Source: Thermoproteota archaeon
GTDB taxonomy: Archaea > Korarchaeota > Korarchaeia > Korarchaeales > Korarchaeaceae
Assembly (NCBI GenBank): GCA_027492205.1
Contig: JAOZFN010000002.1
Span: forward strand, 1 to 45,705
Direction of reading: 5' to 3'
DNA length: 45,705 nucleotides
Every line of letters starts with the position of its first letter. Positions within the stretch are counted from its first letter, which is position 1. This document shows positions 38,520 to 45,705 of the stretch, one piece after another. The translations under genes were made by a program, and so were the position numbers. The notes beneath the pieces were generated by a model, which saw nothing but the letters and a program-made list of their open reading frames with translations, did not search any database and was not told the DNA's origin.

Positions 38520-38597
38520 TGGTAGCCCCGCCCGGATTCGAACCGGGGTCGCCGGGTCCAGAGCCCGGCGTGCTTGACCTGGCTACACCACGGGGCT
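38520..38597 (-). tRNA. tRNA-Gln(CUG)
   Basis: Reverse complement AGCCCCGTGGTGTAGC...CCGGG-CTCTGGA-CCCGG...GTTCGAATC...CGGGGCTACCA. Confidence 0.95.
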
Positions 38598-39351: not shown

Positions 39352-39588
39352 ATGAATCAGACGACTACGACCATTCGGGTCGGGAGGAGGTACGCCCTGT
39401 ACATTCCCAAGAGGGTTGTCGAGGCTCTCGGGATTGAGGAGGGAGACCTCGTCGCCATTGAGGTGAGGGATGGGGAAATCAGGCTCAGGCCGGTGAAGAG
39501 GCCCAAGCCCGGAGAGTACTGGGCGGAGGTCGGTCCGGAGGAGGTCGAGGAGGTTGGCGAGGAGCTCTCGAGGGGGGCGATCGGGTGA
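39352..39588 (+). CDS. AbrB/MazE/SpoVT-type antitoxin
   Basis: RVGRRYALYIPKRVVEALGIEEGD; inverted repeat GTCTGAT-GA-ATCAGAC over the start codon. Confidence 0.88.
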   Translation: MNQTTTTIRVGRRYALYIPKRVVEALGIEEGDLVAIEVRDGEIRLRPVKRPKPGEYWAEVGPEEVEEVGEELSRGAIG

Positions 39589-40027
39589 GCTCCTGCTGGA
39601 CACGACGTACCTCCTCCCCTACCTCGGCATAAGGGTGAGGGGGGTGGAGCCGACTCGCTTGGACATGATCCTCAGGTCCCACCGGCCCCTCTACCCGGCG
39701 GTGATGCTGGCTGAACTCGAGGGCGTGCTTTACAAGGTGGGCAGGGAGAGGGGAATGGACAGACTGCCCAGGGCGGCCCTCGACGGGTTCAACTCCGTGG
39801 TCCACGGGGCGCTGGTGGAGCTGGTCCCCCCAACAGACGAAGATCTGGAGATCGCATATCGCGTGATCTCCGCCGGGTGGAGCGACCTGTTCGACGCGGC
39901 CCTCTACGCGACTGCCGAGAGGCTCGACGCGCCGGCCCTCACCCTCGACGGCCGATTCAAGGAGTTCTTGAGGAGGAGGGGATTCAATCACCGCAGGCTC
40001 GTCAGTCACAGGGAGCTTACGAGGTAA
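39554..40027 (+). CDS. VapC PIN-domain toxin
   Basis: LLDTTYLLP, LAEL, DLFDAALYATA, LTLD. Confidence 0.85.
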   Translation: MARSSRGGRSGELLLDTTYLLPYLGIRVRGVEPTRLDMILRSHRPLYPAVMLAELEGVLYKVGRERGMDRLPRAALDGFNSVVHGALVELVPPTDEDLEIAYRVISAGWSDLFDAALYATAERLDAPALTLDGRFKEFLRRRGFNHRRLVSHRELTR

Positions 40028-40141
40028 GCCCCAGGAGTGGCCTGGTTCCACGAAGCCCCACGCTGAACTCAGTGGGCGACCGGAACCCACTTAGCGGCGA
40101 CGGAGGCCCCGCCCGCGACTTCCTCCGCCCACCACAGCCCC

Positions 40142-40609
40142 TCAGGGGATGACCTCGAGCCCGGGCACCCTCCTGAAGTCAGAGTCGAACGTCGCCATCT
40201 TGAGCCCGAGCCTGAGGCTCACCGACGCGTGCACGGCGTCCGCTGGGAGCAGGCCCGCCCTCCGCACCAGGTCCAGCGCGACCTCCCAGTCGACCGGGAG
40301 AATCTTCACCCACGAGAGCCCGCCCATGCCCCTCAGGTAGCGACTGAACTCCTCGACCGGCTCGAGGCACCTCTCCCTGAACTCTCCGTCCCTGAGAAGC
40401 CTCCTCCTCAGCTCCAGGGGTCCAGCGACCCCGAGCTCCGAGGCCTTGGCCGCCAGGAGCTTGTAGGCCACCTCCTCCGCGACCATCGCGGTGACGCCGG
40501 CCTCCTCCTCTCCCTCCTCCACCGCGCTCAAGATCTCCTCGGCCTCGTCGGCCCGGGGCCCGTCGAGCAGGAGGTGCAGGAAGACCGAGGAGTCAAGGAA
40601 GATCCTCAA
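40142..40609 (-). CDS. VapC PIN-domain toxin
   Basis: IFLDSSVF, VAEEV, LLPADAVHA, ATFDSDFRRV. Confidence 0.9.
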   Translation of the reverse strand: MRIFLDSSVFLHLLLDGPRADEAEEILSAVEEGEEEAGVTAMVAEEVAYKLLAAKASELGVAGPLELRRRLLRDGEFRERCLEPVEEFSRYLRGMGGLSWVKILPVDWEVALDLVRRAGLLPADAVHASVSLRLGLKMATFDSDFRRVPGLEVIP

Positions 40610-40833
40610 CGGGCGCCCTCCCAGTAGAGCTCCTCCAGCTCCTCCATGGAGAGCCTGGGCCTGACTATGCCCCTCATCCTCCTGGTCATCCTCCCCCTCT
40701 CCCTGGCCAGGTACATCCTGAGAGCCCTCCTCACGACCTCGGCCCTGGAGACGCCGAGGCTTCGGGCCACCCTGTCTAGGAGCCTGCCCGTCTCCTCGTC
40801 GAGCCTGACGAGCACCTGCATCTTCGATATCAT
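40606..40833 (-). CDS. CopG/RHH antitoxin
   Basis: VLVRLDEETGRLLDRVARSLGVSRAEVVRRAL; GATATC-like repeats over the promoter. Confidence 0.85.
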   Translation of the reverse strand: MISKMQVLVRLDEETGRLLDRVARSLGVSRAEVVRRALRMYLARERGRMTRRMRGIVRPRLSMEELEELYWEGAR

Positions 40834-40916: not shown

Positions 40917-42002
40917 TCACCCCCCGCCGGCGCACGCCCGGCCCACGGGAACCGACTCGGCTGGCCAGGGCCACAGGATCACGACGATCGGGATCCGGCT
41001 CAGGGGCGGCGCGGCCTTGGGAGGCGGGCACGAACCTGGGCCCTCTGGCACTTCGACGACGCTGGCCACGACCACCGCCTGGAACTCTCGACCGCATACC
41101 CTCGAGGGGTCGTAGAACGCCACCGCAGAGTCCCTCGGCACCCTGACTATTCTGGTGGGGTCCGCCAGGGCAACGGCCGCCATGAGGGTGCCGTACCTGT
41201 CGTCCCCGGCCACCACGAGTAAGTGATTCTCCCTCTCCCCCCACGGGTCCCCCCTGGCGTACTGGATCACCCCGATCCCCCTCACGTGGCCGCACGCCAT
41301 CTGGGGCACGACCTGGACGACATCCTCGAGTTTCAAATATCCCACTCCCCCTCCGGCGCCGCCGGCGCAGTACCCGGAGTCGTAAATCGTGTCTCCGACG
41401 AAGGGGATCCACAGGAGGCCTGAGTCGTTCAGGTAGTCCACGAGACGGTTCGCCCTGGGGCCTCCGACCAGTATCAGCTCCCTGTCCAGCAGGCCCAGCT
41501 CCCGGGCCGCCTGAGTGGGCTCGTAGTTCTCATCGAGTATCTCGACGTCCGACCAGACCAACGGCGCCCTGACGAAGCTGAAGACGTCCTCGCCCTCGTA
41601 GATCAGGTCCACCTCTCCCGGGGGAGTCGCGTCCCCGTTCCGGGGGTCGAGCAGCCTGGTCCCCCTCCACTCGCCCGTGAGGTTCGCGTAAGAGTCCCAG
41701 AGGCGCGCGAGGTAGAGGTGCGACCCGACCTTCGCGCCCAGGAGCACGGCGGCCTTCAGGTCCTCCGGCGCCACCCAGGAGCCTCCGTGGGTGCCCACGA
41801 CTATGGCGACGTCTGGGGAGCCGTCCCAGTCGTAGTCCACCGTCCCAGCCCTGACGAACGGACGAGGGAACTCCCTCAGGCTCGGGTACTCGCCTAGCTC
41901 CCCAGGTGGGGCCTGAAGGTCGAAGGCCTCGGGGGGCCTCCCCGAGGAGACCATCAGAAGCGCCGTCAGGGTCAACAGGAGGAGGGCCCCTCTCCACTCC
42001 AT
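40917..42002 (-). CDS. S-layer-family (S_layer_C-like) exported protein
   Basis: Signal peptide; AIVVG..APEDLKAA, ELILVGGPRANRLV, LLVVAGDDRYGTLMAA. Confidence 0.7.
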   Translation of the reverse strand: MEWRGALLLLTLTALLMVSSGRPPEAFDLQAPPGELGEYPSLREFPRPFVRAGTVDYDWDGSPDVAIVVGTHGGSWVAPEDLKAAVLLGAKVGSHLYLARLWDSYANLTGEWRGTRLLDPRNGDATPPGEVDLIYEGEDVFSFVRAPLVWSDVEILDENYEPTQAARELGLLDRELILVGGPRANRLVDYLNDSGLLWIPFVGDTIYDSGYCAGGAGGGVGYLKLEDVVQVVPQMACGHVRGIGVIQYARGDPWGERENHLLVVAGDDRYGTLMAAVALADPTRIVRVPRDSAVAFYDPSRVCGREFQAVVVASVVEVPEGPGSCPPPKAAPPLSRIPIVVILWPWPAESVPVGRACAGGG

Positions 42003-42210
42003 CCCCCATCCGCCCCACATAGGGGGGTCACGTAATAGGACTCCACTCCTACCGGACCCAAAGATCGTCGGATGTTCGCGCCGCCCACTTCACCCCCCGT
42101 CGCTCGAGGACCTCCGTAAGTCCCCTGCTCTCCACGATGCTCCGGAAGTAGGGCCCGAGCTCAACCTTTCTATGCTCCAGTCCGTGTGAGGGGCCGCACG
42201 GGGGGCGGGC

Positions 42211-42855
42211 GTGGAGAAAGAAAAGATATTAGAAGTTTACACGAGAGTTTTCTTGAATCTTGTTGAAATGTGCCACTCTAAGTCAACTTTTGACACGCCA
42301 GAGTGCAGGGAGCCCGACAACGTCTCCTATTTCAGCGACCTGGCGAGGGTCACGGCCACCACCGTCGTGTCGCTTGGGGCGGCCGGTTGGTCGGTGGAGG
42401 AGAGGGGCCTGCTAGACCTTGTCCGGATCTGGGGCGCAGACCCCGTCTGGTACGTCTGGTCGGGCCCGGTCGCAACGAGGTACGGGCCGTTCTTCTTCTC
42501 CCTGTGGAGACCCCTCTACGACTTCGAGGAAAACGACAGCAAGATCCCGGGAATGGAGAAAGTCATCCCGGATCTTCTGGGAGACCCATCGGCGTGGGAG
42601 GAGTTTGAACTGGAGTATCCGGAGGCTGCTAGATACCTTTCAGGCGCGCTGAGGGTCTTCTCTGCGGCGACCCGCCGATTCGAGACCCTGGTCACGCTGA
42701 AATTCGGGGACTTGGACGTTGAGGCTTCGCTGAATTACGTCGCCATACTCCCGGGGGGATTCGATGAGGAGGACATTTTGGGAGCGATCGACGCCATGGA
42801 GTGGGTGTACGCCAGGCTTCTTGAGATGGGGGTTCCCCCTGTACCGCGTGGATAG
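42211..42855 (+). CDS. Hypothetical protein, paralog of 43022..43657 (putative orphan immunity protein)
   Basis: Shares DPVW, WE.F..EYPEA.RYL..AL, AAT.RF and F.EED.L.A..AMEW with the convergent gene. Confidence 0.7.
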   Translation: MEKEKILEVYTRVFLNLVEMCHSKSTFDTPECREPDNVSYFSDLARVTATTVVSLGAAGWSVEERGLLDLVRIWGADPVWYVWSGPVATRYGPFFFSLWRPLYDFEENDSKIPGMEKVIPDLLGDPSAWEEFELEYPEAARYLSGALRVFSAATRRFETLVTLKFGDLDVEASLNYVAILPGGFDEEDILGAIDAMEWVYARLLEMGVPPVPRG

Positions 42856-43021
42856 AGAGTACTCGATCAGGGACTCAGAGTCGTGGCCGTGACTTGTGGA
42901 GCCTAATTCCCCACCAGACTGAAGATCTAGGGCTTTGATTCCCAGATTTAACTTCTGCCACTTCGTAGGGGAACCCAGCCTCCTCCGAGAGGCCCGCGCC
43001 GGTCGGGGGGAGAGGGGAGGG

Positions 43022-43657
43022 TTACACCATCAGGGGGAAGTCGGTCCGCCTCAGCTGCTCCAGCATCCACTCCATCGCCTCCAGCGACTTCAGGACATCC
43101 TCGTCCCTGAAGTCGTCGATGGGCAGGAGGACCCGATAGGCTAGAGGGGGCCGCCACCCTCTCACCACGAGCACGGGCAGGTTGAACCTGTGGGTCGCGG
43201 CCCAGGCGAGCTTCAGCGCCGTCTCCAGGTGCCTGACCGCCTCAGGGTGCTCGGAGGCGTATTTCTCCCACGAGGCCGCGTCCAGCTCTGCCGGGGAGAC
43301 CTGCTCCAGCCCGGGCACGTCGAACGGCACGTACTCCCTCCCCTCGGCATACAGCCCCCGGCTCAGGACGACGTAGGTGGGGCCCGGCCTCGGAAGCACC
43401 GCTCCGTCTATTCGTACGGTCCACACCGGATCCACATCCGGGAGCGCCACAAGCGCGCCTCCGTACTTCACGAACCACTCCTCAGACCCGTAGACGGCTA
43501 TCACGATGGCCGAGGCCCTCGCGAGCCTTCTAAACTCCGTCCTGAGCCTATCGCTCATTCTCTCTTTGGCAGACCCGTACTCGCTGAGGATGGCGTCAAG
43601 AACCTCTTTCTCGAGCCTCTCGATCCCCTCAATGTTCCTCCTGGGCATTGCCCTCAC
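43022..43657 (-). CDS. Hypothetical protein, putative cognate immunity protein
   Basis: Overlaps the stop codon of the nuclease-tipped gene; paralog of 42211..42855. Confidence 0.7.
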   Translation of the reverse strand: MRAMPRRNIEGIERLEKEVLDAILSEYGSAKERMSDRLRTEFRRLARASAIVIAVYGSEEWFVKYGGALVALPDVDPVWTVRIDGAVLPRPGPTYVVLSRGLYAEGREYVPFDVPGLEQVSPAELDAASWEKYASEHPEAVRHLETALKLAWAATHRFNLPVLVVRGWRPPLAYRVLLPIDDFRDEDVLKSLEAMEWMLEQLRRTDFPLMV

Positions 43658-45705
43658 CTCGGTATCCTCCCGGGCAGGTAGGTCCTGCCCGGCGGACGCG
43701 TCGGTGGACGGGCGCTGGCGGTTCTTCTGAATGGGTTCACGGCCTTCCTTATGAGTATGAGCAGCCTCCCACTCTCGTATTTCACCGCCACGGCGTATCC
43801 GTACGGTACCTCAGGGTGGCTCCTGAAGTACTTGTAGAGCGCGCCGCCTCTAACTTCCCCGTTAGACCTCACATCCCCCCTTATGGCCCTGCGGATCAGC
43901 GTTGAGAAGTCGACAACGGCAGAGGTCTTGACCTCTACGGGGATCCTTATCCCATTCTCTATTACAAAACCATCAACTGGGGAAGTAGGTTTTCCGTGCT
44001 TCTCGAACTCAAACCCCTTCAGCTCAAAGTATTTTTTGGTCACTTTCTCTCCAAGTTTGCCCAGTTCCGCCTGAAAAGTGCCCTCCTCTCCGCCCTTTAG
44101 AGAGTTCACATACTCTGAGATCCCTGCCTGAATCTCGGGACTTTCTAGAATCTCGTCGGGCACGGCTATCGGGCCGCTCAGAGTGAGATCTCCCTCGACC
44201 GTGGAGAGTACGGCTCTCACCCCTCTGCCGAGTGAGATCTCGCCCAGCCCGGTTACGATGGACACTTCGCTGCCCGCGACCCTGACCCTCTCGACCTCGA
44301 CCCACCTCTTGGAGACCCTGACCCTCACATCTCCATCCGCCTCTAGGGCGAACTCGACGCCGTCGACGCTGAACAGGAGCCTCAGCTCACCGGTGTAGGG
44401 GTCCAGCTCCGGCCTCACCCCCTCGGCTAGCGTCAGGGGCCCACCGCCCGCCCCGGCCGCGACCCTGATGGACAGAGTATCGCTGGCGTACTCCAGCGTG
44501 AGGCCCGGCACCGGCTCGGACGGGAAGACCTCACCAAGCCCCGCCCGCTCGATCCTGATCACGTGGTGCTCCGCCGTCACGTCCCTCGGCAGGGTGAGCG
44601 TGAAGTCGTCCCCGGACCTCCTCAGGATCGCGTAGTACTTGCGGCCGTCCACCTCCACCCGGACCAGCTGGTCCGGCGCCAGCTCGTCCCCCAGGGAGGC
44701 CTTCATCCTGACGTACTCCGGGCTCACCTTGAGCTTCCTGTACCCCCTGTCGTCCGTGACCTGCATCAGCCACCCGACGTCCCTCGGCGGCCTCACCTCG
44801 ATCTCCACCAGCTGCTCGCCCAGCTCCGGGTGCAGCTCGGAGAAGTAGGGGAGGGCCACCTCCATCTTCCCGTTGCTCATCGCCTTCGGCACCTTCAGGC
44901 TGAGCTCGAAGGTCCTGCCGTCGGCGGTCCTGAACACGAGGTTCGCGTACTCTTCGGATTTGAGGCCGAGCCTCTTGATCTCGTCGAAGCTCAGCTTGAG
45001 GTAGATCCTCTCGACGATGCGGTCTCCGACCTTCCTCTTCTTCACTAGCAGCCTCACGAAGTTGGCGTCGCCCCTGAGGTACCTGACCGCGTCCTCCTCC
45101 CCGAACAGCTCAGCGACCTCGACGGCCCTCCTCTTGATGGCGCCGGCCTTTCTGCCACCCAGCTCCGCCCTGATCTCCTCCAGGAGGGCCCTGGCCTCCG
45201 GGTTCGACTCAAGCCTGGAGTCCCTCCTGCCCGCCGTCGCGGCCGCCAGGAGGGCCAGCCCTGTGAGGGTGCCGGCGGCCCTGGCCCTCTCCCTCCAGCT
45301 CCTCCCCGGGCCGACGGCCTCCTCGAGCAGCCCCAGGATCTGGCCGGGGAAGGTCTGGGTGTACAGCTCCTCCTTGAGGGCCTCTCCGAGCCCCCGGCCT
45401 TCCTCGGCGCCCGCCCCCGCCAGGGCGTCCCTCACGGCGTCGAGGAAGCCGAACGAGAGGAAGTTAGCGGCCTCCAGGAGTCCGGCTAGCTGGCAGGCCG
45501 CGCCCGCGCGCATCGAGGAGTCGAGGGCCGCGCCGAACTCCACGAGGTCGGCCAGCGGTTCCGGCAGGTTCTCCTCCGCCCAACTCGCAAGCCAGGCGTC
45601 CAGGCCCGACAGGACCTCCGCCACCCTGGCGGTGATCTGATACCACCCCTCGGACCCGACCGCGAAGCCGAGGGCGGTTCCGCCGGGGGCCCCGACTATC
45701 GCCTC
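43654..45705 (-). CDS. Large multidomain protein with a C-terminal PD-(D/E)xK nuclease (polymorphic-toxin-like), 5'-truncated
   Basis: Frame open to the window end; LGKLGEKVTKKYFELKGF...PVDGFV...IPVEVKTS at the C-terminus. Confidence 0.75.
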   Translation of the reverse strand, partial: EAIVGAPGGTALGFAVGSEGWYQITARVAEVLSGLDAWLASWAEENLPEPLADLVEFGAALDSSMRAGAACQLAGLLEAANFLSFGFLDAVRDALAGAGAEEGRGLGEALKEELYTQTFPGQILGLLEEAVGPGRSWRERARAAGTLTGLALLAAATAGRRDSRLESNPEARALLEEIRAELGGRKAGAIKRRAVEVAELFGEEDAVRYLRGDANFVRLLVKKRKVGDRIVERIYLKLSFDEIKRLGLKSEEYANLVFRTADGRTFELSLKVPKAMSNGKMEVALPYFSELHPELGEQLVEIEVRPPRDVGWLMQVTDDRGYRKLKVSPEYVRMKASLGDELAPDQLVRVEVDGRKYYAILRRSGDDFTLTLPRDVTAEHHVIRIERAGLGEVFPSEPVPGLTLEYASDTLSIRVAAGAGGGPLTLAEGVRPELDPYTGELRLLFSVDGVEFALEADGDVRVRVSKRWVEVERVRVAGSEVSIVTGLGEISLGRGVRAVLSTVEGDLTLSGPIAVPDEILESPEIQAGISEYVNSLKGGEEGTFQAELGKLGEKVTKKYFELKGFEFEKHGKPTSPVDGFVIENGIRIPVEVKTSAVVDFSTLIRRAIRGDVRSNGEVRGGALYKYFRSHPEVPYGYAVAVKYESGRLLILIRKAVNPFRRTASARPPTRPPGRTYLPGRIPR

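Follow-up and report, generated by a model that had tools for sequence, protein, structure and literature searches.

A probable polymorphic-toxin-like locus with a predicted nuclease tip and paralogous immunity candidates in an uncultured archaeal genus

Polymorphic toxins with tips of the restriction-endonuclease fold and export by signal peptide are well described in bacteria, and signal-peptide export is listed as a route for such toxins, according to excerpts of PMC3482391. The same excerpts place classical polymorphic toxin systems in only about 15 of more than 225 archaeal genomes and describe most immunity superfamilies as absent from archaea (PMC3482391). A 2019 survey, as it is cited in PMC8416519, predicted that many archaea have polymorphic toxin systems, most commonly with DNase and RNase tips. 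In the excerpted text of the citing paper these archaeal systems are known from genome predictions only, none having been tested experimentally as of 2021; some predicted effectors carry immunoglobulin (Ig) domains, the arrays hold tip homologs together with immunity genes, and the organisation of the VARTIG modules of Thermococcales is said to resemble that of polymorphic toxin systems (PMC8416519). Here we describe a locus of an uncultured archaeal genus that lies at the end of the window, by which we mean the whole stretch of 45705 bases that was analysed. The window is the first part of a 102959-base contig (C12) in a genome of 1.94 Mb that is 96% complete (G000). The locus consists of the 3' part of a gene for a large protein with a nuclease-like C-terminal domain (the tip), a small gene that overlaps the stop codon of the large gene (imm1) and a diverged paralog of the small gene that faces it (imm2). 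Coordinates are collected in Table 1.

We favour, with moderate confidence, the reading that this locus is a polymorphic-toxin-like toxin and immunity system. It would fit that kind of system while belonging to none of the families described for it. The large protein, imm1 and imm2 matched no Pfam, NCBIfam or PADLOC family at the cut-off. The 683-residue piece of the large protein encoded in the window had no Pfam family and no PADLOC defence family at an expectation value (E) up to 1, and the 954-residue ortholog from a sister genome (G001) had no Pfam match at E up to 10 save a stray one to Big_7 at E 1.1. The tip, searched as 189 residues, had no Pfam family at E up to 10, Tox-REase-1 to -10 included, and searches of PDB sequences with the tip and with the ortholog alignment returned chance-level rows only. 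No Pfam family was found for imm1 or imm2 at E up to 1, nor for their paralog imm_b of G001 at E up to 10; P0005 gave stray matches only, and the PADLOC scan returned a single stray match for imm1 at E 0.0043. Known immunity families (Imm1-Imm74, SUKH, SuFu and others) gave no match to the small proteins in the Pfam and NCBIfam scans.

A first-pass annotation, made from the letters of the window, had described a gene of more than 680 codons open to the window edge, a terminal GE...VD...VEVK motif, a tip more AT-rich than the rest of the gene, a gene of about 210 residues overlapping its stop codon, a diverged paralog facing that gene, and an unrecognised family for the two small proteins. All of these held. 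The large gene is a minus-strand frame that runs from a stop at 43654-43656 to the window edge, a length of 683 codons, is interrupted by a run of 128 N at contig positions 45706-45833, directly past the window end, and resumes beyond it to a start near contig position 46594. The ortholog in G001 is free of gaps and 98% identical across the 683 residues. Because the stretch of G001 that corresponds to the run of N comprises only about 18 codons, the length of the run is not the true size of the gap. The ortholog in a third genome (G003) has 932 codons and is about 72% identical.

The four residues of the motif were located in the 683-residue piece as E553 (44047-44049), D578 (43972-43974), E591 (43933-43935) and K593 (43927-43929). 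An AlphaFold2 (AF2) model of the tip, which rests on a six-row alignment, had a mean predicted local distance difference test score (pLDDT) of 73.8 and the element order H H E E E H H E E (H, helix; E, strand); the Arg/Pro-rich tail behind the domain was poorly modelled (pLDDT <50 at model residues 169-189). In the model, helix 55-68 is the first core helix and contains E553; D578 immediately precedes the second strand (85-89), and the third strand (92-101) carries E591 and K593. The E...D...ExK spacing is one that we take to be Hjc-like. Wherever the tip sequences cover the motif it is kept, with E in 3 of 3, D in 4 of 4 and ExK in 5 of 5. The best Foldseek rows for the tip were nucleases (SPARDA, LHK-Exo, a splicing endonuclease, I-Ssp6803I and Hjc; best E 4.1e-3). 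A wide search with VIA, an aligner independent of Foldseek for which a Z below 8 may reflect only a common arrangement, gave Z 6.7-4.2, and 36 of the 50 rows listed were titled nuclease, resolvase or restriction enzyme. At the top stood I-Ssp6803I (Z 6.7, root-mean-square deviation (rmsd) 3.4, 98 residues aligned) and Hjc (Z 6.6, rmsd 3.4, 93 aligned), and a CdiA-CT toxin was among the matches at Z 4.5. In a language-model neighbour search the nearest clusters were MafB and Tox-REase-3/-5, with scores of 0.76-0.79 that lie below the 0.9 threshold and serve as a lead only.

The match to the PD-(D/E)xK fold is thus middling, and it gains weight from the motif residues, which fall on the expected elements and are kept in all covering variants. 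The tip very probably has the predicted PD-(D/E)xK fold with an intact active-site motif, in agreement with the first-pass assignment, and the model is consistent with a domain that would act as a nuclease. The same middling scores, together with the lack of a sequence match to any nuclease family, are what would be expected if the tip were a non-catalytic or non-nuclease module, for instance one for adhesion or binding, and the locus a variable surface-protein island without a toxin. An S-layer-like neighbour and an island full of secreted and membrane proteins would suit that explanation as well. It is weakened because the motif is intact: the full E...D...ExK set stands on the expected elements in every covering variant. 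A coupled cytoplasmic partner, moreover, would be unexpected for an adhesin. We regard this explanation as improbable.

The base composition of the large gene breaks where the tip begins. The guanine-plus-cytosine (GC) content was 0.50-0.57 across 43700-44299 (300-nucleotide windows), compared to 0.62-0.74 in the rest of the gene. GC content at third codon positions (GC3) was 0.63 in residues 501-650 and 0.93 in residues 1-480, the drop starting at about residue 485-495, and because GC3 itself falls, the change does not come from amino-acid content. Only 3% of 6772 coding windows of 150 codons from the same genome were as low in GC3 as the tip. The ortholog in G003 shows the same break (GC3 0.64 in the tip, 0.91 in the body), which indicates that the tip, foreign-looking as it is, was in place before these species split.

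The start codon of imm1 is a GTG and shares bases with the stop of the large gene (GTGA); an alternative is the ATG nine bases on, at 43646-43648, behind GAGGTG. To judge from this arrangement, imm1 is translationally coupled to the large gene with either start. The protein of 211 residues has no signal sequence and no strongly hydrophobic segment. It is 35% identical to imm2 over 190 residues (BLASTP, E 1e-23), and in a search of the genome for paralogs these two genes matched only each other; neither a second large gene nor a second tip was found there. In imm2 there are five G at 42828-42832 where the ortholog in G001, which is 95% identical, has four. The extra G shifts the frame of the last eight or so codons and removes the conserved C-terminal FPL motif of the family. 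Either an error of assembly or a genuine late frameshift could account for it.

The locus is restricted to a single genus. The large gene is present in 3 of the 5 genus genomes (the two without it are 72% and 95% complete), and the tip occurs in the same three and in none of 38 other genomes of the phylum searched. The imm family is present in all five genus genomes and in none of 56 other genomes searched. Among 1.84 billion representatives the 683-residue piece found four clusters, which are one ortholog and three fragments; the imm profile found eight clusters among 5.8 billion sequences, and the tip and the body four clusters each in big protein collections. The 683-residue piece had no tblastn match in plasmid or phage collections. 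In all, the imm family comprises 13 sequences in about six subtypes.

The stretch between the imm1-type gene and a conserved S-layer-like gene differs from genome to genome and holds 0, 1, 2 or 3 extra paralogs, the S-layer-like gene being the boundary of this variable array in every locus seen. In G003 no further paralog follows the imm1-type gene (imm_a), and in this window imm1 is followed by the inverted imm2. A 5-kb metagenome contig (L020), on which the toxin end lies beyond the contig, has two tandem paralogs before the S-layer-like gene. In G001 imm_a is followed by a 67-codon remnant of the 3' end of a diverged tip and then by imm_b, imm_c and an inverted imm_d. The remnant matched the tip by tblastn at E 4e-7 with 42% identity, and at E 1e-9 when the remnant was the query; its match to profile A1 is circular, A1 containing the remnant. 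No remnant of a tip was found in the spacer of the window (42856..43021), upstream of imm2 or at the start of L020. G001, G002 and G004 each have a second locus with a further imm subtype, truncated or cut by the contig end.

Diverged forms of the tip are also present as fragments in other assemblies (P0008, 66% identical to the tip, and P0009, 55%). Contigs of close relatives from public runs follow the body of the large gene with about 6% differences and then turn unlike the window, at 44330 in X2 and at 44342 in X4. Record 15 of X2 (565 letters) lies on 44330-44638 with 240 loose letters before 44330, and of record 20 of X4 (1593 letters) only letters 873-1593 lie on 44342-45065. Read by hand, the loose letters at 44330 are in frame and their pattern resembles the residues of the window there, which would suggest a diverged homologous C-terminal part rather than an unrelated one. 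Other contigs (X2, X4 and X5) turn unlike the window just below the stop of imm1, at 43028. The region 43612-44231 had little or no cover in X2, X4 and X5, in which the body and imm1 were covered; this was not counted as evidence on its own. Among the public runs listed as containing the locus there was no RNA run.

Toxin-tip exchange, which the first-pass annotation had invoked, is supported only indirectly, by the remnant, the fragments, the paralog arrays and the GC3 break. The homologs that it had led us to expect, with a common N-terminus and different tips, were not among the three full-length proteins, in which the C-terminus is invariant in type; at the level of complete genes this is an outcome that the annotation had named as refuting its reading. 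Since the complete genes share one tip, the case for exchange rests on the fragments, the one remnant, the composition and the contigs that turn unlike the window.

That all complete homologs carry one tip type, and that no delivery machinery is apparent, would be equally in keeping with an exported or surface nuclease that feeds on or remodels extracellular DNA, kills no neighbours and has imm1 as an intracellular safety inhibitor, after the logic of barnase-barstar or NucA-NuiA. Such a nuclease would account just as well for the signal sequence of the large protein (see below), the nuclease-like tip and the coupled cytoplasmic partner. It would leave unexplained why the inhibitors fall into six diverged subtypes with 0-3 extra copies, why a displaced tip remnant precedes one imm copy, and why conserved, weakly hydrophobic segments occur in a helical region of some 310 residues of the large protein. 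Inhibitor genes, furthermore, are present in genomes where the nuclease gene was not found. We consider this an unlikely explanation, and the likeliest of the rivals.

The predicted fold of imm1 raises a different role for the small protein, since it resembles that of secretion chaperones. The AF2 model, a confident one (pLDDT 87.5), has an alpha-beta-beta-beta-alpha-beta-beta-alpha fold which, from about residue 40 to about residue 208, is that of class I chaperones of type III secretion and YbjN-like proteins. The top three VIA rows had Z 9.0, 8.7 and 8.1, followed by 7.7-6.7 through row 19, with 104-131 residues aligned. These first 19 rows were all chaperones, YbjN-like proteins or uncharacterised proteins of like shape, 13 of them type III secretion chaperones, and included SycN-YscB (Z 9.0), the AvrPphF chaperone (Z 8.7), SpcU, Spa15 and ExsC. 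Foldseek agrees weakly (best E 3.1e-2). As far as a narrow full-text literature search shows, no immunity protein with the type III chaperone/YbjN fold has been described.

The 211-residue proteins could, on these matches, be export or holding chaperones of the large protein in place of immunity proteins, with paralogs that serve other cargo. The large protein, however, has an ordinary signal sequence, and to our knowledge archaea have no type III secretion system. Paralogs stand without a nearby cargo gene, some in genomes where the large gene was not found, and one follows the tip remnant, a pattern expected of toxin and immunity cassettes. A common fold does not show a function, and this one occurs also in the uncharacterised archaeal proteins 3cxj and 1yb3, both among the VIA rows. 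We rate a chaperone role as improbable, to much the same degree as a tip that is no nuclease.

Prediction of a complex of the tip with imm1, which the first-pass annotation had suggested as a check, gave a score of 0.35 against 0.01 for the best of three controls. This is a weak pass. In the runs at least 57% of the contacts agreed and the partner pLDDT was at least 72, and one of the three runs scored 0.01. Of 157 solved complexes, 116 reached the mark applied, as did 2 of 215 mismatched pairs, and scores up to 0.60 were those of only 18 of the 157 solved complexes plus both of the mismatches that passed. The prediction is consistent with binding of the tip by imm1.

The order of parts in the large protein is best seen in the gap-free ortholog of G001, in which a signal-like segment (residues 8-26) is followed by about 110 residues of Ig-like appearance, then by a Gly/Ser linker, an Ala/Gly-rich helical region (about 310 residues), a middle region (about 300), the C-terminal domain (about 170) and the Arg/Pro-rich tail of 27. 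Residues 8-26 are the only strongly hydrophobic segment of the protein; they come after a basic n-region, end in small residues and are kept in G003. The stretch of about 110 residues is possibly Ig-like, on the strength of the Big_7 match and the look of the sequence. Between G001 and G003 the protein varies most in residues 117-270, where windows of 40 residues are 13-43% identical. In G003 (L015, G003:C11) the linker and the beginning of the helical region can hardly be aligned with G001 and are strikingly Arg-rich. The middle region had no Pfam, NCBIfam or PDB sequence match and no usable Atlas match; P0007 is a 91-residue fragment homologous to it. AbrB-like domains in the middle region found no support, as BLASTP against the AbrB-type protein of the window itself gave E 36. 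Of the delivery domains for which the first-pass annotation had suggested looking upstream, the part beyond the window thus supplied a signal-peptide-like N-terminus and no known trafficking domain.

Three weakly hydrophobic internal segments in the Ala/Gly-rich helical region are conserved between G001 and G003. The segments AIVGAPGGTALGFAVGS and AAGTLTGLALLAAATAG, which lie in the window, are uncharged and conserved in G003 although their flanks diverge. Hydrophobicity was judged by uncharged stretches and by Kyte-Doolittle and Hessa-type sums. The Hessa-type sums were +4.4 to +8.5 for the internal segments, +2.1 to +2.9 for the signal sequence and -1.7 to +5.0 for segments of four neighbouring membrane proteins, the best four of each. 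Fixed membrane helices were therefore rejected for the internal segments, whose hydrophobicity is well below that of the signal segment and of the true membrane helices of the neighbours, and we treat the segments as buried or conditionally inserting helices. The small-residue hydrophobic helices of the first-pass annotation are accordingly present and conserved, at a hydrophobicity well below that of membrane helices.

Three conserved uncharged segments between an outer domain and the C-terminal part would also be expected of a membrane-embedded sensor-nuclease for defence or suicide, with the Ig-like part outside, the three segments spanning the membrane and the nuclease in the cytoplasm, where imm1 would restrain it until it is triggered, for example by a virus. 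With an odd number of spans the tip would come to lie inside the cell, and the gene is part of a variable island that has toxin-antitoxin pairs close by. The Hessa-type sums of the internal segments, set beside those of the signal sequence, speak against spans of this kind. The large protein matched no PADLOC defence family at E up to 1, and the spare inhibitor paralogs and the tip remnant would go unexplained. This is the least probable of the four rivals. The sensor, the chaperone role and the feeding nuclease are weakened most by the paralog arrays, the remnant and the inhibitor genes in genomes without the large gene.

As to the polymorphic-toxin-like system that we favour, the sequences show the architecture of the genes, the predicted folds, the kept motif, the paralog arrays, the remnant, the composition break and the patchy distribution; we infer nuclease activity, toxicity, inhibition by imm1, export, entry into target cells and a role in competition. 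The protein of about 954 residues would be exported through its N-terminal signal sequence, and its C-terminal PD-(D/E)xK domain would be displayed or released and would damage the nucleic acid of neighbours that lack a matching inhibitor. The co-translated cytoplasmic imm1 would protect the producer and its kin by binding and blocking the nuclease. Against other tip variants in the population, imm2 and the extra paralogs of the sister genomes may serve as immunity genes in reserve. The best candidate for a part that would carry the tip across the single membrane of a target is the Ala/Gly-rich helical region with its three conserved, weakly hydrophobic segments. An extension of this mechanism would make the protein a self-delivering toxin. 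It would be exported by Sec, its amphipathic helical region would insert in the single membrane of a neighbouring S-layer archaeon, in the manner of the translocation domains of colicins or diphtheria toxin, and the nuclease would cross without an injection machine; the inhibitors would form a new immunity family with the type III chaperone/YbjN fold, and members of the genus would exchange tips and immunity genes in the form of cassettes. As a whole, this extension is doubtful.

Several results weigh against a toxin and immunity system. The tip is the same in three of three complete homologs, and its identity between G001 and G003 is 68-93% in windows of 40 residues, a divergence no greater than that of the body. 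The low GC3 common to G003 means that the tip is no recent private acquisition. A profile search for longer proteins with the tip found only the two orthologs, and finding no others is weak evidence. The fold scores of the tip stay below Z 8 throughout on a model from six rows, and Foldseek gave no match for it at E 0.001 or better. The fold of imm1 is that of secretion chaperones, and the score of the tip and imm1 complex was a weak pass only. No known trafficking, repeat or pre-toxin module (RHS, FilH, LXG, WXG, MafB-N, PrsW, HINT) was present in the Pfam scan of the 954-residue ortholog, and we know of no delivery route into an archaeal cell for such a protein. The evidence from the public runs consists of metagenome contigs at 80% likeness, the content of whose unlike parts was not read, and the whole sample is one genus with about six related, non-independent loci.

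Table 1. Features of the locus, in window coordinates.
Feature	Position	Strand	Description	Basis
imm2	42211..42855	+	214 residues, diverged paralog of subtype d, inverted relative to the large gene	BLASTP, 95% ortholog in G001, DNA alignment of the 3' end
Spacer	42856..43021	.	between the convergent stops of imm2 and imm1	sequence and locus comparison
imm1	43022..43657	-	immunity candidate of 211 residues (208 from the ATG at 43646-43648)	open reading frame, GTGA overlap, AF2, VIA
Large gene, 3' part	43654..45705	-	683 codons plus stop; full gene about 954 codons, to about contig position 46594	open reading frame list, gap-free orthologs
Arg/Pro-rich C-terminal tail	43657..43737	-	27 residues (657-683), into the start of the next gene	pLDDT, sequence
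Tip, low-GC3 C-terminal domain	43738..44250	-	residues 486-656; predicted PD-(D/E)xK core at 43738-44061	GC and GC3, AF2, Foldseek, VIA, motif
Middle region	44251..45210	-	residues 166-485; no family or fold match	
Ala/Gly-rich helical region, part in the window	45211..45705	-	residues 1-165 of 683; holds AIVGAPGGTALGFAVGS and AAGTLTGLALLAAATAG	

On the side of imm2 the locus is bounded by the S-layer-like gene (40917-42020, minus strand), which encodes a secreted protein of 367 residues with an S-layer outer domain (S_layer_C, E 4.6e-19). The protein is a short paralog of one of about 890 residues elsewhere in the genome and is seemingly split in two in G001. Between this gene and a HAD-type gene, at 39352-40830, lie two toxin-antitoxin-like pairs (names judged from sequence). 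The first, on the plus strand, is an AbrB-like gene of 78 residues with a PIN-like gene of 157, and the second, on the minus strand, a PIN-like gene of 155 residues with a ribbon-helix-helix-like gene. Most of this stretch is absent from the related contig L020. A gene for glutamine transfer RNA (tRNA-Gln) at 38520-38597 on the minus strand, some 3.5 kb away from the locus, is a possible marker of an integration hot spot. The other tRNA call, a 92-nucleotide tRNA-Pro (agg) at 40585-40676 on the same strand, overlaps protein-coding frames and may be a false positive.

Upstream of the large gene, beyond the window, about 12 kb of the contig (about 46.7-58.5 kb) hold repeated cassettes of families without a Pfam match, in which a multi-pass membrane protein of about 155-165 residues comes after each secreted protein of about 330 residues. 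The same region holds secreted paralogs of 183, 296 and 392 residues with a common conserved C-terminal block. The number and order of the cassettes vary among G000, G001 and G003, and pieces of them recur beside the second imm locus of G001. This region could be part of a wider conflict island. The TM190 gene that adjoins the large gene was considered as a toxin-specific partner and rejected, since it was found in all five genus genomes.

Cell-cell warfare in archaea is almost unstudied, and the locus offers a compact pair of candidates, of which the tip has about 170 residues and the putative inhibitor about 210. The lineage that they come from is uncultured and little known, and no family library searched contains the families of tip, body or immunity protein. 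If the toxin and immunity reading is true, the locus would contribute a nuclease toxin family that is new, immunity proteins of secretion-chaperone fold and a candidate for machine-free entry into cells with only an S-layer and one membrane. Should that reading be false, the locus remains a clear case of a surface-protein island that changes fast.

Among known proteins, the core of the tip is closest to the minimal PD-(D/E)xK enzymes Hjc and I-Ssp6803I, its best matches (Z 6.7-6.0, rmsd 2.9-3.4 over 90-98 residues), whose catalytic residues are placed in turn on helix 1, strand 2 and strand 3, as they are in the tip. Unlike these small cytoplasmic dimeric enzymes, with which it has no detectable sequence similarity, the tip ends a protein of 954 residues that is predicted to be exported. 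Residues of about 40-208 of imm1 share a predicted fold with SycN-YscB, SpcU, Spa15, ExsC and AmyR/YbjN. In contrast to those proteins imm1 has no Pfam match, carries an added N-terminal helical extension and stands beside a nuclease-tipped gene in an archaeon without type III secretion.

Bacterial Tox-REase, MafB and CdiA-CT (EC869 type) systems, as far as the excerpted sources describe them, share with this locus a large, here putatively exported, multi-domain protein that ends in a domain of the PD-(D/E)xK type. Further likenesses to bacterial polymorphic toxins, within the same excerpts, are an immunity-like gene directly downstream, diverged extra paralogs, a displaced tip remnant and a break in composition at the tip. 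The locus differs from the bacterial systems in its archaeal host, in having no sequence match to Tox-REase, MafB, RHS, filamentous-haemagglutinin, LXG or Imm families, in the lack of dedicated secretion system genes among those seen, and in the single tip of all complete homologs. The archaeal systems of Makarova et al. 2019 are known here through their citation in PMC8416519, and the genus described here is known from metagenome assemblies only. With the VARTIG modules of Thermococcales, as the excerpts present them, the locus has in common a large, apparently secreted archaeal protein with one or more Ig domains, here a possible one, that heads a variable array of downstream genes (PMC8416519). 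The VARTIG proteins have a hypervariable C-terminal Ig domain and no recognisable toxin in that account, whereas the C-terminus described here is nuclease-like and the downstream genes form one paralogous family.

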